A stretch of 51,993 nucleotides of DNA from a virus, in IMG/VR virus record IMGVR_UViG_3300004625_000001; one strand, written 5' to 3'. The notes below the pieces were generated by a model that ran no database searches, was not told the origin of the DNA, and was given only the letters and a program-made list of their open reading frames with translations. Each line of letters begins with the position of its first letter. Position 1 is the stretch's first letter. Below, piece by piece: positions 3,850-51,180 of this stretch. Position numbers and translations under genes: made by a program.

Positions 3850-3850
3850 C

Positions 3851-6361: not shown

Positions 6362-6561
6362 GGCAGCCGTGCCCCCTCGATCAGGAAGACGGGAGCTTCG
6401 CCGTGAAAGTCGAGATCCATACGGCCCGGAAGGGCATCGACGAGCGCGTCGGTCTCAAAGCACATCTGCTTCAATTGGCGTTTTTCTTCTTCGTTCTGGC
6501 AGGCTCTGGCGGCTGCATAGGCCGCTTGGTTCAGAGCGCGGAGGAGGTCGGCGTAGCTCAT
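6358..6561 (-). CDS. Hypothetical small protein
   Basis: Start MSYADLL at 6561 overlaps the upstream stop (ATGA). The longer 6630 start would overlap the neighbouring gene. Confidence 0.55.
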   Translation of the reverse strand: MSYADLLRALNQAAYAAARACQNEEEKRQLKQMCFETDALVDALPGRMDLDFHGEAPVFLIEGARLP

Positions 6562-12818: not shown

Positions 12819-12855
12819 GGCTCTGATGAAACGCCCGACGATGCATTCAGACAGC

Positions 12856-13695
12856 CTAAGCTGCACGTTGCCTGGGCCTCGGTCTCCTGCGGCGCGGCTC
12901 GACAACACGCAATCGTTCAATCAAACGCTGATTGAAGTCGACTCGGTCGATCCCAAAGTGCGCACGCCGGTGACAGTCAGGGCACACCCCGATGACGTTG
13001 CAGGGGCTGTCAGGCCCCCCATCGGAAAGACGGTGCACATGGTGGCATTCGATATAAAGACTGCCGTTAGGGCGTCGAAATGGCCCTGGTTCCCTACAGT
13101 TTTCACAAATTCCGCCGGCGCGCGCCAAGACATAGTCCCGTACGTCGCGGCTCCTAGCGAAAACGCTTCTCTGTGCTGGAACACGTTCCGGTGTGGGCTC
13201 TGCAGCTTCGAAAGCTCGACGCCTGAGCTCTTCGATATCTTCTTCGTCGTTCGGGAGGACGGGTTCAACGTGGTCGAGGTTGCCTGCGACATCTCCTGCG
13301 CGGCGCAATTCGAAGACGATCGCATCGCGGATGTTGTTGTATTTGTCTGGCGCTGGTTCGTAGTGGTGGCGCTCATAGACCATTTCTCCATCATAGCGAA
13401 GCCCGCCTCGGACCGACGTGAAGAGATGGATAGCCTCACCATTTTGCCAGGAATCGACGATAGCTCGATTTCCGGACCTCATTTCCATCGGGCCAACCTG
13501 CCCCTGACCAAAATACTCGAAGACGCCATCGTCTCTCCACCGATCGGCGTATCCGTGCCGCCGTCCTTCCTCACCGCTAACAATGAAGATGATGGGAGTG
13601 TCAGCAGGCGTGATGATGCCGCTGCGCTGTTGCCCGTTATAGACCCCGTGGATATCGGCTACGCGGTTGTAAACTTGGCCAAGCATGAACGGCAT
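12856..13695 (-). CDS. SRA(YDG)-like domain + HNH endonuclease; putative modification-dependent (type IV) restriction enzyme
   Basis: N-terminal SGIITPADTPIIFIVSGEEGRRHGYADRWRDDGVFEYFGQGQVG...SGNRAI...GEAIHLF fits the SRA pattern. C-terminal CENC...ECHHVHRLSDGGPDSPCNVIGVCPDCHRRAH is a canonical HNH. It is on the opposite strand to the surrounding operon. Confidence 0.7.
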   Translation of the reverse strand: MPFMLGQVYNRVADIHGVYNGQQRSGIITPADTPIIFIVSGEEGRRHGYADRWRDDGVFEYFGQGQVGPMEMRSGNRAIVDSWQNGEAIHLFTSVRGGLRYDGEMVYERHHYEPAPDKYNNIRDAIVFELRRAGDVAGNLDHVEPVLPNDEEDIEELRRRAFEAAEPTPERVPAQRSVFARSRDVRDYVLARAGGICENCREPGPFRRPNGSLYIECHHVHRLSDGGPDSPCNVIGVCPDCHRRAHFGIDRVDFNQRLIERLRVVEPRRRRPRPRQRAA

Positions 13696-13763
13696 ACGAA
13701 CCTCCCTCTCGTTTGGTTCTCCCTTGTAGGTTGTTCTCCTTCCTTAAGAGTTAAGGAGGCTGC

Positions 13764-13964
13764 ATGACCGAACCCTCCGAGATGATCGCCTGGCTCGACC
13801 GCCGCATCGCCTCCGCCATGACCTGGCTGGACGACCACGGCAAAGGCTCAAAGAAGCCTCGCCCAGACCACGAAATCGAAACCAAGGAATACGACATCGC
13901 CCGCTTTGAGGAGATCAAGGCGGCGTATGTGAAGGCATTGGCGAAGAGGGAGCAGGCGGCATGA
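13764..13964 (+). CDS. Hypothetical small protein
   Basis: TAAGGAGG RBS; 66 aa; ATGA-coupled to the methyltransferase remnant. Confidence 0.6.
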   Translation: MTEPSEMIAWLDRRIASAMTWLDDHGKGSKKPRPDHEIETKEYDIARFEEIKAAYVKALAKREQAA

Positions 13965-19374: not shown

Positions 19375-19923
19375 ATGCCCGCATTGAGTGAAAAACAGAA
19401 GCGGTTCGTCGCAGAGTATCTGATCGACCTCAATGCAACGCAAGCCGCAATTAGGGCGGGCTACAGCGCCAAGACCGCCCAACAGCAAGGCAGCCGCCTG
19501 TTGTCAAATGTTGTGGTGCAGGAAGAGCTCTCAAGGCAGCAGAGCAAGGTCGCTCAACGGCTCGAAATCACCAAAGAGCGTATCGTCGACGAGCTGGCAA
19601 AGATCGGCTTTGCCAACATGCTCGACTACATGCGGGCCGGTCCCGACGGCGATCCATATCTCGACTTCTCCGGATTGACGCGCGATCAGGCCGCAGCGCT
19701 TTCGGAGGTTACCGTCGAGGACTTCAAGGATGGGAGGGGCGAAGACGCCCGCGACGTTCGTCGGGTAAAGTTCAAGCTGCACGACAAGAAGGGCGCCTTG
19801 GTCGACCTCGCTAAGATGCTCGGCTTCATTGTCGAGAAGCACGAGCACACTGGTAAAGACGGCGCGCCGATACAGACCGAGACGAGAACATGGCGGGAAG
19901 TGCTGCGCAGCGAAAAGAGCTAG
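19375..19923 (+). CDS. terS: Terminase small subunit (Terminase_2/P27 type)
   Basis: LSEKQKRFVAEYLIDLNATQAAIRAGYSAKTAQQQGSRLL is the family signature. Confidence 0.9.
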   Translation: MPALSEKQKRFVAEYLIDLNATQAAIRAGYSAKTAQQQGSRLLSNVVVQEELSRQQSKVAQRLEITKERIVDELAKIGFANMLDYMRAGPDGDPYLDFSGLTRDQAAALSEVTVEDFKDGRGEDARDVRRVKFKLHDKKGALVDLAKMLGFIVEKHEHTGKDGAPIQTETRTWREVLRSEKS

Positions 19924-21329
19924 ACGCGACCACCCATCTCACCAACCCGGCCCTTCACGATTTTTGGGAGCAGGTTTTCTTCGGGCAGGCAGACATCGCG
20001 GTTCTCCACGGTGGGCGTTCAAGCTCAAAGACACGAGACACGGCATGCCAGCTGGTGCGCCTGGTCGACCATGTCGGCGTCAGGATGCGGGTTCTTTGCA
20101 TCCGCCGTTTCCAGAACCGCATTCAGGATTCGGTTTACACCGAACTGAAGTGGGCGATTGCTCATCTCGGGCTTGAAGCCGCATACGACGTCCAGAAGAC
20201 GACGATCATTCACCGGCGGACCGGCGCGGAGTTCATCTTCTACGGGATCGAGCGGAACCTCGAAGACATCAAGGGGACGTCCGACGTCGATATCCTTTGG
20301 GTGGAAGAGGCGGAGAAGCTGACCGAGGATCAGTGGACCGTCATTGGCCCGACGATCCGCAAGGAAGACAGCCTGGCTATCCTGCTGTTCAACCCGAAGC
20401 TCGTCACCGACTACGTCTGGAAACACTTCGTCGTCAACGTTCCTCCACACTGCATCGTGCGGAAGATCAACTACACAGAAAACCCGTTCCTTTCCGCCAA
20501 GGCATTGCGCGACATCGCAGCAATGAAGGAACGAAACCCGGAGCTGTTCGAGCACATCTACGGCGGCGTGCCGCTCGGCGATGGCGAACTGTCGATCTTC
20601 AAGCGCAAATGGCTTGAGGCCTGTGTCGATGCCCACAAGGTTCTCAAGCTCTCGCTGACCGGCCGGAACATCATCGGCTTCGACCCTGCCGACGACGGCG
20701 AGGACAAGAGCGCGACGGCTGACAAGATCGGCGGGGTCTTCATAGATGCCGAGGACTGGTCATCCGGCAAGGATGAGCTCGTCCAAAACGCCAAGCGTGT
20801 CTGGGCCAAGGCAAAGCACGCCGATTCAACGGTCTCCTACGACACGATCGGCGTCGGTGCATTCGTGGGCGGCTACATCGACGAGCAAAACCAGGTCAAC
20901 GGGACCAAAGTGAAGCATTACGCATTCCACGCCGGCGGCGCAGTGATGGACGGCGACAAGCCGAGCGACCCTTTCAACAAAAACAGTCCTTTGAACAAGG
21001 ATGAATATCTGAACCTGAAGGCGCAGGCGTGGGCCAACACTGCCCGCCGCGCCATGCTCACGTTCAACGCGGTGGCACGAGGCCAGCCGATCAAGCCCGA
21101 GGATGTTTTGTCGTTCTCATCGCAGATCGACGTCAAGAGGCTTGATGCGCTGTTCACTGAGCTTTGTGTTCCGTGGTGGGTAGAGACCGAAGGCAAAAAG
21201 CGGGTCGTGCCCAAGGCGAAGCTTAAGAAGGATCTGGGTGTGAAGTCTCACAACCTGGCTGATGCTGTTATCGCTGCCGACAACGTTCACATCACCGGCT
21301 CGACTTACACCCTTTCGAACATTGGATGA
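19890..21329 (+). CDS. terL: Terminase large subunit (PBSX/Terminase_3-like)
   Basis: Walker A-like LHGGRSSSKT and Walker B-like ILWVEEAE; nuclease half follows. Position is after terS. Confidence 0.9.
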   Translation: MAGSAAQRKELDATTHLTNPALHDFWEQVFFGQADIAVLHGGRSSSKTRDTACQLVRLVDHVGVRMRVLCIRRFQNRIQDSVYTELKWAIAHLGLEAAYDVQKTTIIHRRTGAEFIFYGIERNLEDIKGTSDVDILWVEEAEKLTEDQWTVIGPTIRKEDSLAILLFNPKLVTDYVWKHFVVNVPPHCIVRKINYTENPFLSAKALRDIAAMKERNPELFEHIYGGVPLGDGELSIFKRKWLEACVDAHKVLKLSLTGRNIIGFDPADDGEDKSATADKIGGVFIDAEDWSSGKDELVQNAKRVWAKAKHADSTVSYDTIGVGAFVGGYIDEQNQVNGTKVKHYAFHAGGAVMDGDKPSDPFNKNSPLNKDEYLNLKAQAWANTARRAMLTFNAVARGQPIKPEDVLSFSSQIDVKRLDALFTELCVPWWVETEGKKRVVPKAKLKKDLGVKSHNLADAVIAADNVHITGSTYTLSNIG

Positions 21330-21332
21330 CCG

Positions 21333-21482
21333 ATGGCCTGTGGACCTTGTGAAAAGCGTCGCCAGATGATCGCCGAAGCACGGAAGCAGGCCGGGGCTAA
21401 GGGCTTCCTCAAAGTGTTGCCGAAGGTCGCCAAAGACGTCGTGAAGAACCCGCCGAACATCAGGAAGAGCCGCAATGGGTGA
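21333..21482 (+). CDS. Possible 49-aa basic protein between terL and portal
   Basis: MACGPCEKRRQMIAEARKQAGAKGFLKVLPKVAKDVVKNPPNIRKSRNG; overlaps the portal start by 8 nt. Confidence 0.35.
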   Translation: MACGPCEKRRQMIAEARKQAGAKGFLKVLPKVAKDVVKNPPNIRKSRNG

Positions 21483-23310
21483 CGTTATCCAGCTTCGGGC
21501 GAATGACAGCCTGCGCTCGATGGTCGCCGGCCTCGGCGATCCCTTCCGAGACAAGATGGCTACGGCCTCGTATGGCCTGCAGTACATCGACGACTATCAG
21601 CTCGCCGCCATCTACAAGAGCAACTGGCTCGGCAAGAAGATCGTAAAAATCCCGGCCTTGGATGCTATCCGTAAGGGCAGGGACTGGCAGGCGGAGCAGG
21701 ACCAGATCGAGGCCATCGAGGCAGAGCAGAACCGGCTAGGCTTCTGGCACAAGCTGCTTGAGGTAAAGGTCAAGGCCCGGCTGTGGGGTGGCGCTGCGCT
21801 GTTCATCGGTACTGGCGAGCAGGATCTCATGCAGCCCCTGAATGTCGAACGGACCGGGAAGGGCGGAATCAAATACCTTACGGCGCTGTCGCGTCGCGAT
21901 GTCGCCGCCGGGCCGATCGATCAGAATGTATTGTCCGATTTCTACGGCAAGCCGTCATATTACGAGGTGACCGGCAACGCATCGATGATCCGCATCCACC
22001 CATCAAGGTTTGCCGTCTTCATCGGCGAGCCCCATGGAGACAACCTGCTGAACTTCGGCGTGAACGACGGTTGGGGCGACAGCATCATCGAGGCCGTTTA
22101 CTCGGCGATGAAAAATGCAGATGCGACGGCGGCGAACATTGCCAGCCTCGTCTTCGAGGCCAACGTCGACGTGTTCCGGATCCCGGATTTCATGAACGGC
22201 CTGGCCGACCCGGAATATAGGAGCCGGCTGCTTGAGCGGTTTTCGCTCGCTGCGACGGCGAAGGGTATCAACCGCGCGCTCGTCCTCGACAAGGAAGAGG
22301 AATACGAGCGTAAGACCATATCGTTCGCCACACTTCCGGAAGTCATGCAGTCGTTTCTGCAGATGGCAGCTGGTGCTGCCGATATCCCGGTGACACGGCT
22401 TCTCGGCCAGTCTCCGGCCGGCATGTCGGCGACCGGCGAATCCGACATGAACAACTATTACGATCGCGTGTCGTCTATCCAGACGCTGGAAGTGACGCCC
22501 GCGCTCTATCGCCTTGACGAGTGCCTGATCCGCTCTGCCCTCGGCAGCCGCCCCGACGAAGTCTTCTATGAGTGGTCACCGCTCAAGCAGATGACCGAGA
22601 AGGAGCAGGCTGAAATCGGCAAGTTGAACGCCGAGACGGCGAAGACGCTGGCCGATACGGGCATCTTCACCCCGGTCGAGCTGCGAACCGTCGTCACGAA
22701 CCAGCTTGTGGAATCGAGCTTCTATCCCGGTCTTGACCAGGCGGTGGCGGCAACTGATGCATCCGGCGAGTTTGACCTCGGTGGCGATGATGAGACCGAT
22801 GAACCGGAAGACCAGCAGCAGACGCGCCAGCGGGCCGCCGACGCTGCACCGCGCACGCTCTACATTCATCGTGACGTGGTGAACGCCGACGACATCAAGA
22901 AGTGGGCGAAGACTCAGGGCTTCGAGACCGTTCAGGACGATCTGCACGTCACCATCATCCACACTCGTACGCCGCTGGACTGGATCAGGGTCGGGAACGA
23001 CATCGAGTGGGCTGACAGCGGCAACACCATCAAGATCCTCGCCGGTGGCCCGCGCCTTATGGAGCAGTTCGGCGATGCGGTCGTGCTTCAGTTCGCAAGC
23101 TCGCGCCTGACCTGGCGTCATGAGGATATCAAGCGCCTCGGCGCCGACACGGATTATCCCGACTACCAGCCACACGTCACGATCTCGTGGCAGAAGCCGG
23201 AAGGAATGGACCTTTCGACGGTCGAGCCGTACCGCGGTGAGATCATCCTCGGGCCGGAAATCTTCCAAGAGGTCAATGACGACTGGAAGAGCAAGATCGT
23301 CGAGGCGTGA
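21475..23310 (+). CDS. Portal protein (DUF1073-like) fused to a C-terminal 2H-phosphoesterase domain
   Basis: Portal body is aa 1-~425. An acidic linker (GEFDLGGDDETDEPEDQQQ) follows. Aa 459-611 carry two H-V-T-I tetrads (LHVTIIH at H491, PHVTISW at H567). Confidence 0.85.
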   Translation: MGDVIQLRANDSLRSMVAGLGDPFRDKMATASYGLQYIDDYQLAAIYKSNWLGKKIVKIPALDAIRKGRDWQAEQDQIEAIEAEQNRLGFWHKLLEVKVKARLWGGAALFIGTGEQDLMQPLNVERTGKGGIKYLTALSRRDVAAGPIDQNVLSDFYGKPSYYEVTGNASMIRIHPSRFAVFIGEPHGDNLLNFGVNDGWGDSIIEAVYSAMKNADATAANIASLVFEANVDVFRIPDFMNGLADPEYRSRLLERFSLAATAKGINRALVLDKEEEYERKTISFATLPEVMQSFLQMAAGAADIPVTRLLGQSPAGMSATGESDMNNYYDRVSSIQTLEVTPALYRLDECLIRSALGSRPDEVFYEWSPLKQMTEKEQAEIGKLNAETAKTLADTGIFTPVELRTVVTNQLVESSFYPGLDQAVAATDASGEFDLGGDDETDEPEDQQQTRQRAADAAPRTLYIHRDVVNADDIKKWAKTQGFETVQDDLHVTIIHTRTPLDWIRVGNDIEWADSGNTIKILAGGPRLMEQFGDAVVLQFASSRLTWRHEDIKRLGADTDYPDYQPHVTISWQKPEGMDLSTVEPYRGEIILGPEIFQEVNDDWKSKIVEA

Positions 23311-25940: not shown

Positions 25941-27074
25941 ATGAATTTCACCGACGCTGTCACCATCGCGGGAACGCGACGGACCGACGACGGCTACCTT
26001 GTCGCCGAAGCGAAGGCAGTCCGGACCGGCATCCAGCTTTATACGGGCGATGAAGTCGGAAAGCCTGAGATGTCCGTCGTCAGGGTCTATCGCCCGCCGG
26101 AATCCGTCTTCGCCGATGCCAGCCTACAGAGCTTCACCCACGCACCGGTGACGATGGATCACCCGAAGGACGCCGTGACGGCCGAGAACTGGAAGGATCT
26201 GGCAGTCGGCGAGGTCAGCACGGCCGCCAAGCGGGACGGGGAGTGGGTTTATCTCCCGCTCATCCTGAAGGATGCAGCGGCAATCAAGGGCGTCGAGGGT
26301 GGCAAGCGCGAACTCTCCGCCGGCTACGTCTGCGAGCTCGTATGGGGCGACGGCGTCACTCCGGATGGCCAGCAGTACGACGCCCAGCAGACCAACATCA
26401 AGATCAACCACCTGGCCGTCGTCGATCGCGCTCGGGCTGGTTCAAAGGCTCGCATCGGTGACGGTGCGAATTGGGGCATCAGCCCTGTCACCCCTGATCA
26501 CAAACCTCAAGAGGAAAAGATCATGACCCTGAAGACGGTTACCGTCGATGGCATCCCGGTTGAAGTAACCGATCAGGGTGCCACGGTTATCGCAACGCTG
26601 CAGCAGCGGCTTGCGGATGCCCACTCCAAGATGGGCACGGCAGACGCCGCGCACCTCTCCGCAATCGCTGCAAAAGACAGCGAACTCGCCAAGAAGGATG
26701 CCGAAATCGACAGCCTGAAGGCCAAGGTGCTTTCGGATGCTGATATCGACAAGCGCGTCCAGGACCGCGCCGATCTGATCGCCATCGCCACCACCATCGC
26801 GAAGGACGTCAAGACAACCGGTCTTTCCGATGCGGCCATCCGCAAGGCGGTTGTCACTGCCAAGCTCGGCGATGCTGCCATTGCCGGCAAGGCTGACGCC
26901 TACATCGACGCTCGCTTCGACATCCTGGCAGACGAGGCGAAGAAGGCGATCGGAGCCGATCCGTTCGCGCGAGTTCTCTCCGACGGCATTCGCCCCAACG
27001 TCGACGTCCACGTCGCCGCGGACAAGGCATGGTCGGAGAGCGTCAATGACCTCAACGCCTGGCGCAACAAGTAA
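25941..27074 (+). CDS. DUF2213-type scaffold / prohead-core protein
   Basis: N-terminal DUF2213-like (HAPVTMDHP..., RELSAGY) and a coiled-coil C-terminal half. Position is before the capsid gene. Confidence 0.7.
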   Translation: MNFTDAVTIAGTRRTDDGYLVAEAKAVRTGIQLYTGDEVGKPEMSVVRVYRPPESVFADASLQSFTHAPVTMDHPKDAVTAENWKDLAVGEVSTAAKRDGEWVYLPLILKDAAAIKGVEGGKRELSAGYVCELVWGDGVTPDGQQYDAQQTNIKINHLAVVDRARAGSKARIGDGANWGISPVTPDHKPQEEKIMTLKTVTVDGIPVEVTDQGATVIATLQQRLADAHSKMGTADAAHLSAIAAKDSELAKKDAEIDSLKAKVLSDADIDKRVQDRADLIAIATTIAKDVKTTGLSDAAIRKAVVTAKLGDAAIAGKADAYIDARFDILADEAKKAIGADPFARVLSDGIRPNVDVHVAADKAWSESVNDLNAWRNK

Positions 27075-33440: not shown

Positions 33441-35084
33441 ATGATCGTTGACGAACTTATCGCCATCCTTGGTTATGAGACCAGGGGTGAGGGCGAGCTG
33501 AAGAAGTTTCAGCAGTCTATCGATCAGACTGCGAAGCGGATCACGATTTTTGCTGCCGCTGCAGCGACCGCGGCGGCCGGCGCTCTGGCGGCACTCGGAA
33601 AGTCGGTCATCACCACGTCGGCGCAATTCGAAAGCTATGCCGCAACCCTGGAAACGATCGAGGGGAGTGCTGAAAAGGCACAGAAGGCGCTCGACTGGGT
33701 TTCTACCTTTGGCGCCAAGACGCCTTACGAGGTTGGCGAGGTCACTGAAGCCTTCGTTCGGCTGAAGTCCTACGGTATCGATCCCACGACCGGAGCGCTG
33801 GAATCCGTCGGCGATGCGTCCAGCGCCATGGGCAAGACCCTGATGCAGGGCGTTGAGGCAATCGCCGACGCTGCGACAGGTGAATTTGAGCGACTGAAGG
33901 AGTTCGGCATCACATCGAGCGTTGCCGGCGACAAGGTCACATTCAACTGGACGAAAAACAGCAAGACGCTGTCGAAGACCGTCAAGAAGAACAGCGCCGA
34001 AATCATCCAGTTCCTGAAGGACAACTTCGCAGACCGCTTTAATGGCGCGATGTTGAGGCAGTCCAAGACGTGGAACGGCATGGTGTCGAACCTCGGGGAC
34101 GCATGGACCGGCTTCCTTCGCAAGGTCGGTGATGCCGGCTTCTTCGATGCGGTAAAGCGCCAGCTTGGGCGGCTTCTCGATTTTATGGGCGAGTTGAGCT
34201 CGAATGGCACTCTCGAAAAGTTCGCCAAGGCGCTCGGGTCCGCTCTCGAGACCGGTGTCAACGCGGCAGTGTTCCTCGTGGATCGCCTGCGCCGGCATTT
34301 CGAGTTCCTGTCGCAGTGGGTTTCGGTCAACCCGGACCTGTTCAAGGCTATAGCCGTCGGTCTCGGGCTGATCGCCGCGGTAAAGTTCCCGTTCCTCACT
34401 GGTCTCCTGGTCCTTGAGGACATCCTGTCGTGGATGGAGGGCGGCGATAGCATAATCGGCAAATTCGCGGATGCTCTGTCGAAGCTGACCGGGATAGACA
34501 CCGACACCCTGAGCACCATCATCGCCACCCTTTCGGGAGGAGTGGCGCTTGCAGCCGTGGCATCGTCAATCGGCCTGATGACGGCGGCCATAACGCCTCT
34601 GACCGCCTCGCTCCTGGCGTTCGCTGCTGCTTTCGCCGCAGCAAAGGCAGGGCTGGACTATCTCGGGTTCGTGAAATCTAACCTCGACAAGAAAATCGAG
34701 GGCATCACGGCGGTCGATAACCCAAAGTCAAAGCCGGGATACGTCGAAGGCATGGGCGGCATCTACATGAAGGGTGCCGCCGTCGTCGATCAGCCGCGTC
34801 CGCCGAACCTCGAAGATTCCATGACCAAGGACGCCTTGGACTGGAAGCTGATGATGCAGAACGCCGAAGGCAACACTGCAAAGATGGGCGGCGGCGCTCC
34901 GGCCAATGCTGTCGTCAACGACAATAAGCAGGACAATCGGAACCAGTCTGTTCAGGTCAACGTAGGCGGCGTGCAGGTCAACGGTGTCGCCGGTACTGGC
35001 GCGGCTGTCGGCGCAGCCGTTGGCAACGCTGTCGGGCAGGGTGCTGCTCGCGCCTCCCGCTTCGAAAAGGATGATGCCTTCTGA
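33441..35084 (+). CDS. Tape measure protein
   Basis: 547 aa; TMP core (TSAQFESYAATLETIEGSAEKAQKALDWVSTFGAKTPYE); hydrophobic central segments; Gly/Ala-rich C-terminus. Confidence 0.9.
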   Translation: MIVDELIAILGYETRGEGELKKFQQSIDQTAKRITIFAAAAATAAAGALAALGKSVITTSAQFESYAATLETIEGSAEKAQKALDWVSTFGAKTPYEVGEVTEAFVRLKSYGIDPTTGALESVGDASSAMGKTLMQGVEAIADAATGEFERLKEFGITSSVAGDKVTFNWTKNSKTLSKTVKKNSAEIIQFLKDNFADRFNGAMLRQSKTWNGMVSNLGDAWTGFLRKVGDAGFFDAVKRQLGRLLDFMGELSSNGTLEKFAKALGSALETGVNAAVFLVDRLRRHFEFLSQWVSVNPDLFKAIAVGLGLIAAVKFPFLTGLLVLEDILSWMEGGDSIIGKFADALSKLTGIDTDTLSTIIATLSGGVALAAVASSIGLMTAAITPLTASLLAFAAAFAAAKAGLDYLGFVKSNLDKKIEGITAVDNPKSKPGYVEGMGGIYMKGAAVVDQPRPPNLEDSMTKDALDWKLMMQNAEGNTAKMGGGAPANAVVNDNKQDNRNQSVQVNVGGVQVNGVAGTGAAVGAAVGNAVGQGAARASRFEKDDAF

Positions 35085-43771: not shown

Positions 43772-43887
43772 AACCGAAGATCCTTATGATCACCCGCGAG
43801 AACATGCTCGCGTCATTTGATTCCTGCAAGCCGCTGAATCCACCACGAAGCTTGCGCGAAACTTTCCCAAAATCGGAGACATCAACA

Positions 43888-44760
43888 ATGCCAGTCAATG
43901 ACACGGCGAACGAATTCTCGCGCTCTCTCGCCAAGGTGCTCGTCCACGAAGGCGGCTATAGCAACCATCCGGCGGATCCGGGCGGCGCCACGATGAAGGG
44001 CGTCACACAGCGCGTCTTCACCGAATGGCTGGCCGCCGATGGAAAGCCTTCGCGTGACGTCCGGACCATCACGGGTGCGGAAGTCGCGGCGATCTACCGC
44101 AAGCGCTACTGGGACGTCGCCAAACTCGACAAGCTGGCCCCGGGTGTCTCCTACGTCGTCTTCGACGGCAACGTGAACTCGGGCGTCTCCCAATCCATCA
44201 AGTGGCTCCAGCGCGCGTTGCAGGGGCTTGGGCTCTACCAGGGAGCGATCGACGGCATCATCGGGCAGGGGACGATCCTGGCGGCGGCTGGCGTCAACGA
44301 CAACGACATGTTGATCGCACGCATCATCGAGCGCCGAGAAGCTTTCCTCCGAGCTCTGAAGACCTTCAAGACCTTCGGGAAGGGCTGGATCAGCCGCATC
44401 AGAGACGTGAAGGCAGTGGGGCAGGCTTGGGCTACCGGATCAGTCGGCCCTGAAATCAGCTACAAACCGGGCGGTGAGGCCAAAGCATTCCTGTCCAGCG
44501 CGAAGGCAGCGCCAGCTCTTGCCGTAGCAGATGCTTCGACTGGCAGCGGTGTCGGCTCCGGCGGCATCGCTGTGACGCTCCAGCAGGTGCAGGATCAGCT
44601 TTCGCCCCTCAGTTACTCCAGCGAGCTTATCGGCAAGGTGGTTGCCGGCTTGATCATCGTGAGCGCTGTTTTGACGATCGGCGGCCTTGCCTATCGCTGG
44701 TACGCGAAGCGCAAAAAGGACCGGCTCAAAGATGCCCTCGATATCCCGGTGGCGTCATGA
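43888..44760 (+). CDS. GH108 N-acetylmuramidase endolysin with PG-binding domain and C-terminal membrane anchor
   Basis: VHEGGYSNHPADPGGATMKGVT (GH108) and LQGLGLYQGAIDGIIG (PG_binding_3-like). C-terminal TM LIGKVVAGLIIVSAVLTIGGLAY plus basic tail. ATG at 43888 has a GGAG RBS. Confidence 0.85.
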   Translation: MPVNDTANEFSRSLAKVLVHEGGYSNHPADPGGATMKGVTQRVFTEWLAADGKPSRDVRTITGAEVAAIYRKRYWDVAKLDKLAPGVSYVVFDGNVNSGVSQSIKWLQRALQGLGLYQGAIDGIIGQGTILAAAGVNDNDMLIARIIERREAFLRALKTFKTFGKGWISRIRDVKAVGQAWATGSVGPEISYKPGGEAKAFLSSAKAAPALAVADASTGSGVGSGGIAVTLQQVQDQLSPLSYSSELIGKVVAGLIIVSAVLTIGGLAYRWYAKRKKDRLKDALDIPVAS

Positions 44761-45002
44761 CCATCGGGACTTTGCTCAAGCTTGCGCTAGGCGCGCTTGC
44801 CGCCTCGGGCATCGCCTTTCTGATTGGCTACGGCTTCGGATACTCCGGCGGCCGATCAGACGTCTACGCCGATCTCCAAGCCAACCGTGTCAAAATCCTC
44901 AAAGATGGGAAGAATATCGATGCGAAAGCACTTGCTGCTGATGATCCCGGCCTTTGCGCTATGCTTGGCGGGTGCGAGCTGCCAGACGGCGAAGGTAACT
45001 GA
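44757..45002 (+). CDS. Lysis-module membrane protein (i-spanin or holin candidate)
   Basis: N-terminal TM LLKLALGALAASGIAFLIGYGF. ATGA-coupled to the endolysin. Confidence 0.55.
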   Translation: MTIGTLLKLALGALAASGIAFLIGYGFGYSGGRSDVYADLQANRVKILKDGKNIDAKALAADDPGLCAMLGGCELPDGEGN

Positions 45003-45138
45003 GCCTTGCGACATCCTAGTCGCTATAAACCCGAAGCCGGCGACGAACAGTTATCTTATCGCAAATGACCGGCAGGCGGCTGTTTCGATCGCTCAGCACC
45101 GCGGGCGGTACGAGCTTTATCATTGCGGCGGGGCTTAG
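44920..45138 (+). CDS. Overlapped lipoprotein (o-spanin candidate)
   Basis: MRKHLLLMIPAFALCLAGASCQ is a signal with a lipobox-like Cys. It starts in the +1 frame inside the previous gene, as in Rz/Rz1. Confidence 0.45.
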   Translation: MRKHLLLMIPAFALCLAGASCQTAKVTEPCDILVAINPKPATNSYLIANDRQAAVSIAQHRGRYELYHCGGA

Positions 45139-46063: not shown

Positions 46064-46714
46064 ATGTCAGACGATATGAGCAACAACAATGACGCCCATC
46101 GGGTCTATACCGATGCCATCACCGCCCAGCTTGGCGAGCGGGTGACCAACCTTGGCCGCCGGCAGACGGATCTCGAGACCGAGGTGCGCAGCGGCTTCAA
46201 GAACATTGATACCGCCGTCACGTCTCTTGCGAACGAAACGCGTGCTTCGATCGCCGCACTGTCGACGAACCTTGCCGAGCGCAACAAGCCGCAATGGCAG
46301 GCGCTTGGGGTCGCGTTGACGTTTGCGGCGATGCTCGGCGGCCTGGCATACCTACCGATCCGAGAGGCGACCAGCGACCTGAAGGCGTCCGTCAACCTCC
46401 TGGCGGACAAGATGGTCACGCAGGGGGAGCTGGAGTGGCGTACAGCCCGATCGGCAGAGGATCGGGCTAGGACTGATGCCGCGGTAAAAGATCTGCGTGA
46501 TAACCAAGTACCGCGGGAAGAGCTCGACCGGGTGTTCGGCAGCTATGACCAGCGGTTTACCGATCAGCAGCGGCAGGTCGACGAGGTGAAGACGGCGCAA
46601 GGAGCGATATACGGCGCCCGGGATGTTCTAATCGAGCTACGAGAAAATCAGCAGCGGTTGGAAAAGGAGCTTTCCTCGCTGAGGACTGCCGGCGCGAGCC
46701 TCCCAACGCGCTGA
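46064..46714 (+). CDS. Membrane-anchored coiled-coil protein
   Basis: 216 aa; central TM ALGVALTFAAMLGGLAYL flanked by coiled-coil segments. Confidence 0.65.
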   Translation: MSDDMSNNNDAHRVYTDAITAQLGERVTNLGRRQTDLETEVRSGFKNIDTAVTSLANETRASIAALSTNLAERNKPQWQALGVALTFAAMLGGLAYLPIREATSDLKASVNLLADKMVTQGELEWRTARSAEDRARTDAAVKDLRDNQVPREELDRVFGSYDQRFTDQQRQVDEVKTAQGAIYGARDVLIELRENQQRLEKELSSLRTAGASLPTR

Positions 46715-46737: not shown

Positions 46738-47256
46738 TCATTGTTGTTCCCAGCCTAAAGGCATGTCCAGCTTCCTCCGCTTATTTTCGTGGAACGAGAG
46801 CCGTAACTTATAAAACGGCATAGACTCTCGATGGGCGCGGCGGATTTTTACACTCAAATCTCCAGCCAAGGGGGCCGCGCGGGTTGCCCTTGCTAGATCG
46901 ATCTTTCGACAGGGGACGGAGTAAAGGCCTCCCGTAAGGACATCCAAAAGATCCGACAACTGAGCATCAATCTCGATCTCGTTCGCTTCGCTCAGGAACG
47001 GCCGGAAATCACCGAAGATACCATCAATGTGTGTTTGAAGAGCTAGAAGTCTCGCTTCGGCAAGAGCCTGGCGGGAACCCGTTTTGTTGAAGTCTGTTGC
47101 CCAATAATCAGCTGCGTGGACACTCGCATCCCAAATAGCCCTGCACAATTCATCACACCGCGACGTCAGTTCGTCGCGATGAAACTTCCACATATTGAAT
47201 ACTAGCGTGATCGAAGCGCCGATTAGCGCACCCAATAAACCTGAAAGAAGAACCAT
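46738..47256 (-). CDS. Single-pass membrane protein, third gene of the GHKL/STAS cassette
   Basis: N-terminal TM LLSGLLGALIGASITLVF. Only a 6-nt gap to the upstream gene. Confidence 0.65.
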   Translation of the reverse strand: MVLLSGLLGALIGASITLVFNMWKFHRDELTSRCDELCRAIWDASVHAADYWATDFNKTGSRQALAEARLLALQTHIDGIFGDFRPFLSEANEIEIDAQLSDLLDVLTGGLYSVPCRKIDLARATRAAPLAGDLSVKIRRAHRESMPFYKLRLSFHENKRRKLDMPLGWEQQ

Positions 47257-47262
47257 CAGAGG

Positions 47263-47616
47263 TTAATGGAACGCGTGGTGGAGCCGACCGGCAGCTTCCT
47301 TAATGTAGGTCGCTGCGCGAACGGCGTGATGTTTGAAGCGAGACGTACGGGCTTCAATACGAAGGTGCTTATCCAGCTCCTCCCGTGAGAAGCCAGCCCG
47401 AATGAGTCCGCCGAACGCTTCCTCCAGAAAGGAGGAACCGTATCCGGCGACGTCGTCCAGTACCACGATCAGCACCGAATCCTGATCCTTAGCCGCACGA
47501 AGTGCTGGCACAAGAATTTCTTCGCGGAATTCCTCTCCACTGAAATCCCCGTGCTGCTTGTAGCGCGGGCCGGGGAACCGGCTAAATTCTTCAGCGATTT
47601 CTATAACCCTAGGCAT
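47263..47616 (-). CDS. DUF4325 / STAS-like protein
   Basis: VLIVVLDDVAGYGSSFLEEAFGGLI signature. ATG at 47616 (MPRVIEI) has a GGAAG RBS; the longest ORF extends to 47646. Confidence 0.7.
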   Translation of the reverse strand: MPRVIEIAEEFSRFPGPRYKQHGDFSGEEFREEILVPALRAAKDQDSVLIVVLDDVAGYGSSFLEEAFGGLIRAGFSREELDKHLRIEARTSRFKHHAVRAATYIKEAAGRLHHAFH

Positions 47617-47623
47617 CTGCTTC

Positions 47624-48787
47624 CTACAACTCAAGCTGCCACTCAACTAGCGTTCCGCTTAATGGGAATTCGTGAGTGAGGCTTCTCGGCCGCTTTCCAG
47701 TCTCCCAGATATATTCACCATTTCGACTTAGAATTCTAAGTCTTCCGTACCTAGCGCGCTGAGCTACTTCCACAATGGTGTGAAGCCCTTTTCCGTGCTG
47801 AGGCAGTTGCGTTGAAGACTTCGCAATCTTCATTGCCAGATGTATTGCCAATCCGTCATTGCTAAAATGGTCTATTGGCATTGAAAGTTTCAAGCGCTGC
47901 ATAAACTTTTTAGCACGAATTTCAACTGCATTCCAATGCGCCCAACGGGGTAGGCTGTGTGGTATCGAAACCCCTTGGTCGTAAACACATACGAGCACTT
48001 GGTTGGTTTTAGTATTGACAGCACCCGTCAACCACCAATTTTTGAGAGCCTCATGCTCCCAGACATGTTCCGCTGGGTATGCCCAGCTATAGGAGTTCAG
48101 GATTGCCTCGAGCATTCCACCGTAAGGTTCCGCGGTAAATAATTTCTCTCGCAGTTCCGTAGGAAGCAAGAGTGCTAGCGCGTCTTGCAACCGACCCAAT
48201 TCTTCGCCGTCAGCTCTCTCGCCCGAGACAAACCGTTGGATTTTGACGTCGCCAGTATAGCGTTTTCGTGTGTCGAAAGGTTGCATCTCCAATAACTCGT
48301 GGAACCCTAAAGCACGTAGCATCCCTGTCACATTGGCACGCCACTTGTGCTCGTCGACGCTATGAATTCTTCGCCCGGTTATGTGTTTGGCGCGCTGAAA
48401 AACCGCTGCGAGCACAAGAGCCGCAGAAGGGCTTATCTCGTTTATCGTGGTGAAATCAAAATAACGCTTCAACTTGAATGGGCGCTTGTGTCCCCTGACC
48501 ATGTCCGCCTTGGCCTCGACGGCTCGATCTAGAACGTCAGCCCGCAAGCGATGTATTGCTTCTAGCGTAGCATCCACGTTGTCCTCCAGACAAAAGACAC
48601 GAGGAAGAGGAATGGCTGTCATCATTCTTGTTTTGAATCGGGCCCCCCCTCTAGATATGACGACAGCGCGAGCACCTGCTCTGCTCTGGCGAGATTTGCG
48701 CGAAGTCTTCCAAATAAGTCTTCGAATTTCTCTGTCTCGCGCTACTTTTCTTTGGAAGCGTCTGTATTTCTCTGAATGTTTTCGCAT
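47624..48787 (-). CDS. GHKL (histidine-kinase-like) ATPase / putative Ser kinase
   Basis: Ordered Bergerat-fold motifs LEAILNS (N-box-like), VYDQGVSIP (G1-like) and GKGLHTI (G2-like). Very basic N-terminal 50 aa. GAGGG RBS at 48787; an alternative start is at 48625. Confidence 0.65.
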   Translation of the reverse strand: MRKHSEKYRRFQRKVARDREIRRLIWKTSRKSRQSRAGARAVVISRGGARFKTRMMTAIPLPRVFCLEDNVDATLEAIHRLRADVLDRAVEAKADMVRGHKRPFKLKRYFDFTTINEISPSAALVLAAVFQRAKHITGRRIHSVDEHKWRANVTGMLRALGFHELLEMQPFDTRKRYTGDVKIQRFVSGERADGEELGRLQDALALLLPTELREKLFTAEPYGGMLEAILNSYSWAYPAEHVWEHEALKNWWLTGAVNTKTNQVLVCVYDQGVSIPHSLPRWAHWNAVEIRAKKFMQRLKLSMPIDHFSNDGLAIHLAMKIAKSSTQLPQHGKGLHTIVEVAQRARYGRLRILSRNGEYIWETGKRPRSLTHEFPLSGTLVEWQLEL

Positions 48788-48851
48788 CGAACCCTCACAA
48801 GAGCTCGATCAACTACAACGCGAAGAAAACGTCAAGCGCTTGCCTCCATGC

Positions 48852-49229
48852 TCAACCAGCCGTGCACCAATCATTCTTCCGGTGCGGTGTCCACTCTCGG
48901 GCGAACCCTTCCTTGAGCAGCTTGGTCCCGATCTCTTCCCCGTTCGTTCGATAGATGTTTACGAGCGGCCTATGCTTCGGCGTGTTGTCGAAGCCTTTTA
49001 TTTCTATCTGCAGGCCGCGTTCTTCCAAAAGCTCTTTCAGCCTTCCCTTGGCGATTAGCGCCAGTTTCCGTTCCTTGATGCACTTCGCGTGCGATCCGAC
49101 CTCCGGGGTATCTATGCCCCATTGGAACGGCACTCCTCCTCCCAGCAATCGCATGAGCTGCCCGTCGCAGCGCACGGTGTCGCCATCTACCGCAGACAGT
49201 GTGGCGCACATCAGCATTCCGGCGATCAT
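48852..49229 (-). CDS. Staphylococcal-nuclease-like (SNase/thermonuclease) protein
   Basis: VDGDTVRCDG...RLLGGGVPFQWGIDTPE..., then KGR...D...RPLVNIY..G.....L..EGFA. Confidence 0.75.
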   Translation of the reverse strand: MIAGMLMCATLSAVDGDTVRCDGQLMRLLGGGVPFQWGIDTPEVGSHAKCIKERKLALIAKGRLKELLEERGLQIEIKGFDNTPKHRPLVNIYRTNGEEIGTKLLKEGFAREWTPHRKNDWCTAG

Positions 49230-49414
49230 TGCGGTCTAACCTGGCCGGTGGGCTGTTCCTTGTATGGATAGTGCTCCCAGCACCACCAACGGGTCTCCTC
49301 GGTCTTGTTGACCGCAAACCCCAGTCCTCCCCACTTCCCGCAGCCCGTGACAGAGCAATAGTGCTCGACGATCACGTTCGCCCCTGGCGCCGTCGAATGG
49401 CCTTCGTTGCTCAT
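49226..49414 (-). CDS. Small Cys/Trp-rich protein
   Basis: 62 aa; CSVTGCGKWGGLGF...WWCWEHY. ATGA-coupled to the nuclease. Confidence 0.55.
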   Translation of the reverse strand: MSNEGHSTAPGANVIVEHYCSVTGCGKWGGLGFAVNKTEETRWWCWEHYPYKEQPTGQVRPQ

Positions 49415-49430
49415 GCCGCGTCATCTCCCT

Positions 49431-49766
49431 TCACGAGCCGTGCATCTCTTTCAGCTTGTCGTAGTGCTCTTCGACTTTGCGCGATGCCTCTCTAGCCGTC
49501 GCCTCCCACCCCTGCTGCGGCATGATGCGCCTGCGTATCCATGAGGCAAAGCCGCCGTTCCAGCGCCACTGGTTTTCCTTGCCCGATGTGGTTTGGTCGA
49601 CCTGGATGCGGCCCACGATCTCTTTCCCGTCATAGCCGACGAAATCCTGCTTTCCCCCACCGGGCCAGGTTTCCTGCCATTTGTATCTGGGCTGATATTG
49701 TTCGGGCAAAAGCGGACCGCGCGGGATCTCAGAGGTGTAAAAACAAGGAGGGCGCACGGTCCGCAT
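49431..49766 (-). CDS. Hypothetical protein
   Basis: 111 aa, Trp-rich; same strand and operon. Confidence 0.55.
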   Translation of the reverse strand: MRTVRPPCFYTSEIPRGPLLPEQYQPRYKWQETWPGGGKQDFVGYDGKEIVGRIQVDQTTSGKENQWRWNGGFASWIRRRIMPQQGWEATAREASRKVEEHYDKLKEMHGS

Positions 49767-49816
49767 ACCTTGCGAGGCGTTCTTATTATGTTCTTCTTTG
49801 GCGAGGAGTCAAGAAC

Positions 49817-50056
49817 CTAAAGAAAGCCCTTCCGCCGCAGGACTTTCAAAGCTGCTTCCACCTCGGCATTAGCTTCGATCATCAGGGCTTGATTATCGGC
49901 AAGCTCTATCAGTGCCGCAAGCACCTCATGCGCTCTCCAACCTGCCGCGTCGGCACGCTCGACGAGATGCTGAAACTCGGCGTGCAAAGCATCCTGACAG
50001 CTGATGAAGCGATCGGGGTCGTTCTCTTCGACTTGCGGCGGAGGGATCTCGCTCAT
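49817..50056 (-). CDS. Hypothetical small acidic protein
   Basis: Start MSEIPPPQ at 50056; helical. Confidence 0.5.
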   Translation of the reverse strand: MSEIPPPQVEENDPDRFISCQDALHAEFQHLVERADAAGWRAHEVLAALIELADNQALMIEANAEVEAALKVLRRKGFL

Positions 50057-50130
50057 GGCGCAAAAACTCGACCTCCTTGCCGCGCGTGTCAATAGACGGC
50101 ATTTTAAGCATTTGCTGATGGAGTGGTCTC

Positions 50131-51180
50131 ATGACCAAGTCTCCAAAGTCAAAGCCGCTCCTGCAATCCGACAGGCCGCTTCGCTCGCGAGCGCGCAAGC
50201 CGCGAGATCCCGCGCAGCCAAATCTTCCCCTCGATCCCATGCCGGCGCGCATCGAGCCGTGTCTCGCTCTCCTGAAGCAGAAACCGCCTAAAGGGCAGCA
50301 ATGGGCCTTCGAGGTGAAGTGGGACGGCTACCGGATTGCGGTTCATATCGAGCCCAAGGGCGTTCGTATTCTGACGCGAGGCGGACACGACTGGACGCAC
50401 CGCTTCCCGGCGATTGCTGCTGAGGCGGCGCAGCTCGGGGCAGCAACGGCAATCATCGACGGTGAAGCCGTGGTGCTGGATGAGCGAGGCCGGTCGGATT
50501 TCAGCCAGTTGCAGCAGTCGCTCGGGGGCCGCGGCGGTAGGCTGAACTCCGGTGCATCCGTTCTGATGGCCTTCGACCTCCTGTATTTCGATGGTCACGA
50601 TCTCACGCAGACAGAGCTTTCAACCCGCCGGCATCTACTTGAAGGGCTGATCGCGCCAGGTAGGGAAAGTGCCATCCGGATATCGGAGGAGGTGGAGGCG
50701 GACGGCGAGCAGTTGCTGCGCCTAGCCTGCGAGCACGGGCTCGAAGGGATCATCGCCAAGGATCGCAACAGCGCCTATCGCTCTGGCCGGCTCGGCGACT
50801 GGCTTAAGGTCAAATGCATCCAAAGCGATAGCTTCATGATAGTCGGCTGGGAGCAATCGAGTGTCGCGCGAGGCCATGTTGGTTCTTTGCTCCTGGCTGC
50901 CTACAAAGGCAATGATCTGGTTTATGTCGGATCAGTTGGAACCGGCATCAAAGACAGCGAGGCATGGAAGCTTCGCGGCATGATGGAAAAGCTGACGGTC
51001 AAGAGGCCTCCCGTCGCTTATGATGGTTCCCGAAAGAACCTGACATGGCTCCAGCCAACGCTGATAGCGGAGGTCGAATATCGCGCATGGACCCATGACG
51101 GCAAGCTTCGCCATGCGTCTTACAAAGGCCTGCGGGAAAAGCAGGACAATGCCGAAGTCTTTGTAATCCAAAATAACTAA
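50131..51180 (+). CDS. ATP-dependent DNA ligase (LigD ligase-domain type)
   Basis: Motif I EVKWDGYR (KxDG), motif III-like LMAFDLLYFDG, motif IV GLEGIIAK and motif V DWLKVK. An OB domain follows. Confidence 0.88.
   Translation: MTKSPKSKPLLQSDRPLRSRARKPRDPAQPNLPLDPMPARIEPCLALLKQKPPKGQQWAFEVKWDGYRIAVHIEPKGVRILTRGGHDWTHRFPAIAAEAAQLGAATAIIDGEAVVLDERGRSDFSQLQQSLGGRGGRLNSGASVLMAFDLLYFDGHDLTQTELSTRRHLLEGLIAPGRESAIRISEEVEADGEQLLRLACEHGLEGIIAKDRNSAYRSGRLGDWLKVKCIQSDSFMIVGWEQSSVARGHVGSLLLAAYKGNDLVYVGSVGTGIKDSEAWKLRGMMEKLTVKRPPVAYDGSRKNLTWLQPTLIAEVEYRAWTHDGKLRHASYKGLREKQDNAEVFVIQNN

Follow-up and report, generated by a model that had tools for sequence, protein, structure and literature searches.

A kinase, a STAS-like protein and a small membrane protein form a recurrent three-gene cassette on mobile elements: a candidate kinase-gated module in a rhizobial prophage

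The window analysed here is the whole stretch of 51,993 nucleotides (nt) in IMG/VR virus record IMGVR_UViG_3300004625_000001, the genome of a tailed phage that is carried as a rhizobial prophage. Three closely spaced open reading frames (ORFs) on its minus strand are the subject of this study. They are named K (ORF1), S (ORF2) and T (ORF3), and K-S-T stands for the whole cassette. K is a predicted Ser/Thr protein kinase of the GHKL type, S is a STAS-like (DUF4325) protein, and T is predicted to be a small membrane protein. The features of the cassette are:

48788..48851, minus strand: spacer between an SNase gene and K, 64 nt, containing GAGGG as ribosome-binding site and TTGACG as a weak -35-like hexamer
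47624..48787, minus strand: K, 387 amino acids (aa), ATG start
48614..48787, minus strand: K residues 1-58, Arg/Lys-rich helix (6-34) and beta-hairpin (40-60) in the AlphaFold2 (AF2) model
48212..48613, minus strand: K residues ~59-192, beta-alpha-beta-alpha-beta-alpha unit in the AF2 model
47624..48211, minus strand: K residues ~193-387, predicted GHKL ATP-binding/kinase domain with N, G1 and G2 boxes and G378-T379
47263-47646, minus strand: ORF2 as given in the ORF list, from a TTG, 127 aa
47263..47616, minus strand: S, from the ATG at 47616, 117 aa
47431..47433, minus strand: Ser62 codon of S (GS-S62-F), predicted as phospho-acceptor, where STAS helix 2 starts
46738..47256, minus strand: T, 172 aa
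47188..47253, minus strand: predicted transmembrane (TM) helix of T, residues 2-23, with the conserved small-residue motif LxGAxIGA

The ATG at 47616 was chosen as the start of S because an AGGAAG-type ribosome-binding site, TAGGAAGCAG, stands before it, and because this start matches the N-termini of the homologues as well as independent metagenomic gene calls of 117 aa. With this start the gaps amount to 7 nt between K and S and 6 nt between S and T, as a preliminary description of the stretch, made from its letters alone, had given them. The same description had noted an AT-rich appearance. The GC content of the cassette is 51.4%, compared to a mean of 59.2% (standard deviation 2.4) for 2-kb stretches of the window, and the cassette is the GC minimum, every other 2-kb stretch being higher. 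Transcription of K-S-T from an own promoter in the 64-nt spacer is possible, otherwise it would depend on read-through from the SNase operon. A consensus scan for promoters and terminators gave no better result than the shuffled expectation, and this includes the 64-nt spacer.

Our data demonstrate that K, S and T form one unit, which is the strongest result of the analysis. The preliminary description had treated the three genes as one cassette, and they are indeed co-conserved elsewhere, in loci on mobile elements from many taxa. T evolves too fast for a word-indexed search, which returned only 24 T homologues, and co-occurrence was therefore judged from DNA loci. The order K-S-T recurs in dozens of unrelated loci, beyond chance, and in all related loci with downstream sequence K is followed by S and then by a small third ORF. 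The hosts belong to the Alpha-, Gamma- and Epsilonproteobacteria. In the alphaproteobacterial loci K, S and T were adjacent and in this order in 21/21 cases, with K identity down to 29%. Exact look-up of K homologues (61%, 52% and 35% identity) led to five loci with S and T directly downstream, T being an uncalled ORF in one of them. In GTDB contigs, with one genome per species, the three genes were adjacent and ordered in all 16 of 16 loci, from Rhizobium, Mesorhizobium, Xanthobacteraceae, Brucella/Ochrobactrum, Devosia, Rhodovarius, Kiloniella, Roseovarius and Aestuariivita, among others; in two of these loci T was recognisable by its motifs and TM helix alone.

The viral contigs of IMG/VR gave the same picture. 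A relative of K was present on 27 contigs, downstream sequence was available for 25, and S followed K in 25/25. All 24 contigs that were long enough had a third ORF (101-190 aa) after S, and 18 of these ORFs matched the T profile. Three of the six that did not match (L057, L058 and L060) were inspected, and in each of them a basic cluster comes after an N-terminal hydrophobic helix; the layout of the remaining non-matching loci is near-identical to that of L060. Contig L060 (IMG/VR 3300008521_000115, 3533-6423) carries, about 200 nt downstream from its complete set of K, S and third gene, a further K-like ORF (5476-6423) that matches the K profile with E 5e-20, and there may be tandem or nested kinase modules in this contig.

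When the look-up was reversed and begun with three distant T-like proteins, K and S lay upstream every time. The same layout was seen in Marinobacter phage AS1 (AS1_41/40/39), in a Helicobacter prophage, and on plasmids of Novosphingobium, Acinetobacter (14-kb) and Vibrio; T of the Novosphingobium plasmid is unannotated and matches the T profile with an E-value of 1e-16. In Francisella phage KIRK a 293-aa protein, a DUF4325 protein and a TM protein follow directly after the CI repressor, and the best listed phage match of the 293-aa protein is Marinobacter phage AS1 (PMC7924643). T diverges far faster than K and S: the third proteins of AS1 and Vibrio match the T profile weakly and that of Acinetobacter does not match it. 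Despite this divergence the architecture of the third protein is kept, with an N-terminal TM helix, a basic cluster and a helical domain.

The identity of K was approached through its family. Word-indexed search returned 84 homologues, mostly from Rhizobiales; PF13581 is present in a few distant ones. When 34 members are aligned, the Bergerat-fold motifs that the preliminary description had picked out fall on invariant columns, namely E227 and N231 of the N box (LEAILNS), D270 and G272 of the G1 box (YDQGVSIP) and G332 and G334 of the G2 box (HGKGL); the terminal G378-T379 is invariant as well. A Pfam scan of these 34 members matched HATPase_c_2 in 12 (best E 1.9e-6) and HATPase_c in 2. The anti-sigma serine kinases SpoIIAB and RsbW belong to HATPase_c_2 in Pfam. 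The AF2 model of K had a mean predicted local distance difference test score (pLDDT) of 85.6 and a predicted template-modelling score (pTM) of 0.82. All of the 50 matches listed for this model in a Foldseek search of the PDB were GHKL proteins (Hsp90/TRAP1, GyrB/ParE, SpoIIAB), and SpoIIAB was the best structural match when normalised to target length (1til_E, probability 0.98, template-modelling score 0.63 in this normalisation). As a single sequence K had no match to any Pfam, NCBIfam or PADLOC model or to PDB sequences, and searches with the family profile likewise gave no useful family assignment or PDB-sequence match. The sole match of K in PHROGs was the unannotated phrog_3364 (E 1.4e-31). 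We assign K to GHKL because the family-wide Pfam matches, the motif conservation, the modelled structure and a profile-profile comparison (see below) agree, as the preliminary description had proposed, and predict from this that K is a Ser/Thr protein kinase with a HATPase_c_2-like, SpoIIAB-type domain.

The K family is large and has no curated model of its own. An exhaustive hidden Markov model search of 1.84 billion cluster representatives (50%-identity clusters) with the K profile retrieved 3,261 clusters at E<=1e-3, 2,284 at E<=1e-10 and 885 at E<=1e-30. Among the best 150 of these clusters the majority cover nearly the whole profile. Every source-named homologue in our analysis is labelled merely 'hypothetical protein'.

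S matched Pfam DUF4325 ('STAS-like domain') with an E-value of 7.7e-10 and 38.8 bits, the gathering cut-off being 23. It is a single-domain STAS-like protein with a short C-terminal helical tail. In an alignment of 18 S proteins taken from related loci the residues P15, R18, G27, F30, R31, L35, S62, F63, L64, E66, F68, G69, G70 and R73 are invariant. The preliminary description had placed the GSS motif of ORF2 at the phospho-acceptor position of STAS proteins. It is the second serine, S62, that is constant, and S61 varies (S, A or V). Ser62 is also present in S of phage AS1, of the Vibrio, Acinetobacter and Novosphingobium plasmids, of locus L029 and of Helicobacter. In the distant viral S of L060 the serine stands one residue earlier (DSAF), as in the characterised protein VapS described below. 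PADLOC returned for S a chance-level match alone (0.017).

The 441-residue phrog_5816 is matched by S in its C-terminal part only (341-424), and in some phage proteins DUF4325 is thus fused to a large N-terminal region without detectable similarity to K. A K-S fusion represented by phrog_5816 was considered and dropped, since K does not match it.

Kinase/STAS pairs with a role in immunity have been described by Chambers, Rani, Min, Villa and Corbett (EMBO J 2026, PMC13373217). CapK consists of helix-turn-helix (HTH), STAS and GHKL domains, is switched on by single-stranded DNA (ssDNA) and phosphorylates the Ser54 residue in CapS, which is a STAS protein with a winged HTH (wHTH) that acts as repressor and is freed from DNA by this phosphorylation; the kinase is activated by DNA damage, and the CapK-CapS pair is found upstream of CBASS, Bub and Thoeris operons (PMC13373217). 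VapK (STAS and GHKL) was proposed to phosphorylate VapS, an antitoxin that binds and inhibits the PIN toxin VapC (PMC13373217). The phosphomimetic variant VapS S48E loses VapC binding and rescue, and the vapKSC operon confers about 2 logs of protection against phage Bas42 (PMC13373217). S54 of CapS and S48 of VapS are experimentally important serines, and ssDNA activation of the kinases needs aromatic residues, W68 in CapK and F54 in VapK (PMC13373217).

For comparison with these systems we used the sequences from the appendix of PMC13373217 and a vapKSC operon of a Deinococcus gobiensis plasmid, which has the same gene order and is annotated as 'ATP-binding protein / STAS-like domain-containing protein / PIN'. 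The hhalign comparison of the K family (38 sequences) to a four-sequence VapK/CapK profile gave a probability of 95.7% and an E-value of 8.5e-9 over 233 columns; the single K sequence against VapK/CapK reached E 0.0071. Residues 109-383 of ORF1 align with residues 41-280 of VapK, which takes in the latter half of the STAS region together with the entire kinase domain, and the N, G1 and G2 boxes are in register. For the S profile against VapS/CapS hhalign gave a probability of 82.8% and an E-value of 9.4e-6. The S profile also retrieves the PDB entry 9z7o_A ('Escherichia VapS') in register, though with an E-value of 0.87. In these alignments 'DS-S54-F' of CapS is opposite 'GS-S62-F' of S, and S48 of VapS lies one residue earlier, opposite S61. 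By profile comparison, K and S are remote but real homologues of VapK/CapK and VapS/CapS, respectively.

The alignment also bears on the parts of K that precede the kinase domain. The preliminary description had taken ORF1 for a plain GHKL protein with a very basic N-terminus. The kinase domain and the basic N-terminus stand (19 K/R versus 3 D/E in the first 50 residues), but K has in addition a conserved N-terminal extension and a probable STAS-like domain. The basic extension is kept in alpha- and gammaproteobacterial homologues and is not present in VapK; it is possibly a nucleic-acid-binding or sensing element. The middle domain, residues ~59-192, is probably STAS-like: residues 109-190 align with the region of VapK/CapK that its authors called STAS, and L124, W149, L157 and F162 are invariant in the 34 members. 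The invariant W149 is only a lead for an ssDNA-sensing aromatic residue. A metagenome copy of the same prophage (L036, 3417-4370) has K called with 317 aa instead of 387 aa, and the gap after its SNase gene is longer than in the window; this may reflect an N-terminal disruption or a variant of the basic extension.

No match to T at a curated cut-off, or otherwise meaningful, was found in Pfam, NCBIfam, PADLOC or PHROGs. The AF2 model of T (pLDDT 89.9) is all-helical, with helices at 2-53 (starting as TM segment), 60-87, 90-108, 121-145 and 149-163. As had been read from the sequence, there is one N-terminal hydrophobic helix, with a hydropathy peak of 2.27 at residues 2-20, and according to the model this single TM helix would run into a cytoplasmic four-helix bundle. 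The topology was analysed in 23 third-gene proteins, most but not all of which are demonstrable T homologues. They essentially begin at their first hydrophobic helix, and in 22/23 there are more K/R residues after the first hydrophobic segment than before it. This predicts an N-out/C-in orientation, with the bundle in the cytoplasm beside K and S. The positions Y51, W52, G109 and R123 are nearly invariant and T108 is conserved; these residues sit where helices 1 and 3 end and where helix 4 begins. Judging from the model, they should lie together on the tip of the bundle that points away from the membrane, which is what would be expected of a docking surface. Small-residue motifs like LxGAxIGA in TM helices usually drive helix-helix packing in membranes.

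Foldseek matched T only to generic antiparallel four-helix bundles (FAT, the sensor domains of Tar, PcaY and QseE, and talin rods) with E-values >=0.025, and the viral structure library BFVD contained no decisive match. The best named BFVD match of the T model was orf1 of Haemophilus phage HP1 (P51700; L032 1698-2315, 205 aa, in the int-cI interval), with a probability of 1.0 and an E-value of 0.048. We regard this as probably a generic helical-bundle resemblance, because K and S genes were not found nearby.

All K-S-T contexts with annotation are mobile elements, that is phages, prophages or plasmids. In L029 (2770-5426) the trio is directly downstream of a CI/LexA-type repressor gene (HTH_3 and Peptidase_S24) on the same strand, and in phage AS1 and in L027 (2783-5483) it is located in the Cro/CI or immunity region, one gene from the regulator; L022 (1606-4321) belongs with these loci. 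In phage lambda the slot just after the repressor gene is held by rexAB. The post-repressor position fits a function that is expressed in the lysogen. In Brucella the trio lies between tail genes and integrase, and in Mesorhizobium (L003) as well as in the window it lies past the GH108 endolysin. Toxin-antitoxin (TA) genes adjoin the trio in L001, L024 and L025; RelE/ParE and NadS are encoded near the trio on the 14-kb Acinetobacter plasmid, and MazEF on the Vibrio plasmid.

Within the window the cassette is placed in a cargo region, with the lysis genes on one side and the end of the prophage on the other. The same prophage is also present on a 147-kb metagenome contig, where it adjoins the host gene valS. 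The other main features of the window are:

19890-21329: terminase
21475-23310: portal
25941-27074: head protease
33441-35084: tape measure
43786-44760: GH108 endolysin
48852-49229, minus strand: SNase gene, match with E 3.3e-5, passing the Pfam cut-off
50131-51180, divergent from the SNase block: ATP-dependent DNA ligase (DNA_ligase_A_M and A_C, E 7e-33)

The preliminary description had given weight to the SNase-type nuclease beside the cassette. The SNase match is real, but the neighbourhood carries no weight as evidence. The block at 48852-51180, consisting of the SNase-like gene, three small minus-strand ORFs and the divergent ligase gene, occurs with 71-73% nucleotide identity in related Rhizobium phages such as RHph_TM3_3_3 and RHph_N28_2 and is also present in RHph_I1_23, and none of these three phages has the trio. 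In RHph_TM3_3_3 and RHph_N28_2 the ligase block is followed by an integrase. In the slot that lies between the lysis genes and the SNase gene, RHph_I1_23 carries an SGNH hydrolase and RHph_TM3_3_3 a run of small ORFs. Since related phages carry the block without the trio and have other genes in the slot, the trio is exchangeable cargo (a moron). The SNase was accordingly rejected as a fourth component; it is not found beside the trio in other loci with gene content listed, and since it belongs to the phage backbone its adjacency is no evidence for a nuclease arm of K-S-T. The LigD-type ligase beside a nuclease is an unusual backbone feature of a phage. On the other side of the cassette, a 216-aa coiled-coil protein with a central hydrophobic segment (46064-46714, plus strand) is encoded convergently to the end of T; the gap of 23 nt contains no predicted terminator. 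In Mesorhizobium L003 a DUF1515 protein is encoded at the equivalent position.

The domain identities of K and S, the invariant boxes and Ser62, the homology to the Vap/Cap proteins, the gene order and the residence on mobile elements are established by these results. In analogy to VapKSC, we propose that K-S-T is a toxin-antitoxin or abortive-infection module whose membrane effector is gated by the kinase; to this reading we give slightly better than even chances. S is predicted to be the substrate of K and the keeper of the third protein, and T, as the only membrane component of the cassette, is the predicted effector. In the unperturbed lysogen S would be bound to the cytoplasmic bundle of T and keep T inactive. 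A cue from phage infection or DNA damage would turn K on. This cue would probably be a single-stranded nucleic acid that is bound between the STAS-like and the kinase domain, by analogy to CapK and VapK, and the Arg/Lys-rich N-terminus of K could perhaps aid in this binding. Active K would phosphorylate S at Ser62, and phosphorylated S would release T. Free T may then self-associate through its glycine/alanine-rich TM helix and compromise the membrane. As a result growth would stop, either in the infected cell, as abortive infection or superinfection exclusion, or in a cell from which the element has been lost. The binding of S to T, the toxicity of T, the activating signal and the defence phenotype are the steps that we infer from the characterised relatives.

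Of the preliminary description, which had envisaged a sensor-switch-effector architecture built on partner switching, the architecture remains the best available reading. The pair of GHKL kinase and STAS protein stands, but the partner-switching idea needs revision. The characterised relatives are no classical partner switches: in them it is the STAS protein and not the kinase that holds the output, phosphorylation releases it, and neither a phosphatase nor a sigma factor belongs to these systems.

Several observations weigh against the proposed module. The Foldseek E-values for the K model are modest, only 0.01-0.2. The assignment of the middle domain of K to STAS was negative or marginal by hmmscan of 17 domain sequences, and likewise by comparison to the S family (hhalign) and to PDB sequences (hmmsearch); the Pfam STAS model matched 1/34 members of the K family, with E 0.049. 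The K positions aligned to VapK F54 and CapK W68 are variable and are not conserved aromatics. The fold of T is generic, it has no significant structure or sequence match and bears no mark of a pore former; four-helix bundles also serve as sensor domains in chemoreceptors and sensor kinases, and a lone TM helix is a modest device for disrupting a membrane. For some gammaproteobacterial and viral loci the view that the effector is the same rests partly on shared architecture. No model in PADLOC-DB 2.0 (2023) matches K, S or T meaningfully, and there is no prior evidence for a role in defence.

In another explanation T would not be a toxin but a membrane anchor or sensor, whose bundle, or whose short extracytoplasmic N-terminus and TM helix, would report a membrane event such as phage DNA injection or envelope stress to K and S. 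As output, K would phosphorylate other proteins of host or phage, or phosphorylated S would show an activity of its own once released. The resemblance of T to the sensor bundles of Tar, PcaY and QseE and to adaptor FAT domains is consistent with this, as is a second, C-terminal TM helix in some T homologues, an arrangement known from chemoreceptor sensor modules. A T homologue from Kiloniella is labelled 4HB-MCP-like in UniRef, and K has extra N-terminal parts. However, the positive-inside rule places the bundle in the cytoplasm in 22/23 third-gene proteins, the cassette encodes no other effector candidate, and in VapKSC it is the third gene that acts as effector, with the kinase as the sensor of the signal (PMC13373217). 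We therefore consider a sensor role of T unlikely.

The biochemistry could also be as proposed, with S as antitoxin and T as toxin, and serve addiction or the stabilisation of the plasmid or prophage, or else a DNA-damage response of a general kind, instead of protecting against phages. The presence of the trio on small plasmids beside classical TA pairs (RelE/ParE and NadS; MazEF) is in line with such a role, and the authors of the VapKSC study consider the line between stress response and immunity to be blurred (PMC13373217). Addiction normally needs an unstable antitoxin, however, and nothing here points to one; a kinase as input implies a signal-dependent trigger, the post-repressor slot in temperate phages is typical of exclusion genes expressed in the lysogen, and VapKSC does protect against phage (PMC13373217). 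This makes a role outside of phage defence quite improbable in our view.

Regulation of the phage's own lysis/lysogeny, with T as a holin- or antiholin-like protein that is timed by K and S, has still less in its favour. In the window and in L003 the cassette is found just past the GH108 endolysin/spanin region, T is small with an N-terminal TM helix like many holins and antiholins, and one weak Foldseek match of T was to 'holin/antiholin' (probability 0.25). But the position relative to lysis genes varies, with repressor, Cro/CI and integrase genes as neighbours and plasmids without lysis genes among the carriers, related Rhizobium phages with the same lysis genes do not have the trio, and the low GC content marks the cassette as foreign cargo; we hold this explanation to be very unlikely. 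Least probable of all is a classical partner switch of the SpoIIAB/SpoIIAA or RsbW/RsbV type or a transcriptional switch of the CapK/CapS type, which would account for a GHKL kinase and a STAS substrate with the serine at the right position, but not for the 387 aa and extra domains of K, the missing wHTH of S, a third gene that is invariably a small membrane protein and not a regulated operon, or the lack of a sigma factor or PP2C phosphatase among the genes scanned in and beside the cassette.

Some features of the window lie outside these considerations. In the lysis cassette (43786-45138) the GH108 endolysin has a PG_binding_3 domain and a hydrophobic C-terminal segment, and the overlapping ORFs 44757-45002 (N-terminal TM segment) and 44824-45138 (lipobox-like LCLAGASC) look like an embedded i-spanin/o-spanin pair; no obvious holin candidate was seen in this interval. 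The 405-aa protein encoded at 11601-12818 matches phrog_12882 'phosphoadenosine phosphosulfate reductase' from end to end (E 1e-219) and is followed by a 313-aa ORF (12826-13767). Phage genes for proteins similar to phosphoadenosine phosphosulfate reductase are often linked to DNA modification. Residues 471-606 (~135 residues) of the portal protein match phrog_755 'RNA ligase' (E 5.7e-17), and the C-terminus of the portal is either a fused extra domain or this PHROG is mislabelled.

Kinase-STAS switches were tied to bacterial immunity only in 2026, and the outputs then were the repressor CapS and the PIN toxin VapC. The type of mechanism was thus already known; new here is a kinase-STAS pair with a membrane protein as third component. 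K-S-T points to a third and apparently far commoner class of output, a small membrane protein, which is found chiefly on temperate phages and plasmids from Alpha-, Gamma- and Epsilonproteobacteria. Apart from the DUF4325 domain of S, there is neither a curated family nor a PADLOC model for these proteins, and in terms of annotation at least 885 clusters of 50% identity match the K profile at E<=1e-30. If the proposal is true, it would add a new type of effector to a modular sensor, provide a testable mechanism for a common 'hypothetical' trio beside phage repressor genes, and offer a simple genetic system for studying how phosphorylation of a STAS domain gates a membrane protein. A wider view would be that the trio stands for an unnamed but large class of immunity modules on prophages and plasmids, in which phosphorylation of S frees T and the membrane collapses, that it is a functional counterpart of RexAB in the same slot after the repressor, and that the CapK/VapK switch is swappable across nucleases, transcription and membrane effectors. 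We put forward this view tentatively, as somewhat less than an even chance.

In the literature searched no description of a kinase/STAS/TM trio was found. The preliminary description had been unable to match the cassette to a named defence system, and this stands as far as PADLOC-DB 2.0 is concerned, but K and S do have homologues in named systems, as outlined above. The most distant of the four systems considered is RexA-RexB of lambda, where the likeness is one of analogy: both are lysogen cargo, the trio following directly after the repressor in several phages, and both would combine one or more cytoplasmic sensors with a membrane protein that would collapse the cell upon superinfection. 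The two are related neither in sequence nor in fold; RexB is a polytopic channel, and neither a kinase nor a STAS protein is part of Rex.

SpoIIAB-SpoIIAA and RsbW-RsbV share with the cassette the HATPase_c_2-type kinase fold and a STAS substrate with the serine at the N-terminus of helix 2. K is much larger and has several domains (387 aa versus an anti-sigma factor of ~145 aa), it is encoded on mobile elements, and in its nearest characterised relatives the STAS protein and not the kinase holds the output. No sigma-factor or PP2C domain was found among the neighbouring genes scanned or the called genes of the cognate loci, small ORFs being outside of these scans.

CapK-CapS is closer. In both systems a GHKL kinase domain is preceded by a STAS domain (probable in K) and a further N-terminal element, and the context of the phospho-acceptor is alike ('DS-S54-F' in CapS, 'GS-S62-F' in S), with the serine at position -1 from Phe in S and CapS and at -2 in VapS. 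CapS, however, has a wHTH and represses transcription, whereas S consists of DUF4325 only; the N-terminal element of CapK is an HTH, that of K in the model a basic helix and hairpin; and CapK-CapS controls a downstream immune operon, whereas here a single small membrane gene follows with gaps of 6-7 nt.

VapKSC shows the greatest similarity. K has an identity of only about 20% to VapK in the aligned region and an extra Arg/Lys-rich N-terminal extension of ~58 residues, and the third gene encodes a predicted TM-anchored four-helix-bundle protein in place of the PIN nuclease VapC; a PIN domain in T was not matched in Pfam, NCBIfam, PHROGs or PADLOC. Since a membrane protein stands where VapKSC has its PIN toxin, and since K is longer by the extension, we did not file the cassette as a member of VapKSC. 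Both are nevertheless three-gene operons in the order kinase, STAS protein and third gene, the latter being the effector in VapKSC. S and VapS are both DUF4325/STAS-like proteins of ~115 aa with a short C-terminal tail and a serine that starts helix 2, neither system has a phosphatase or a DNA-binding domain, and both reside on mobile elements, in neighbourhoods rich in defence genes.

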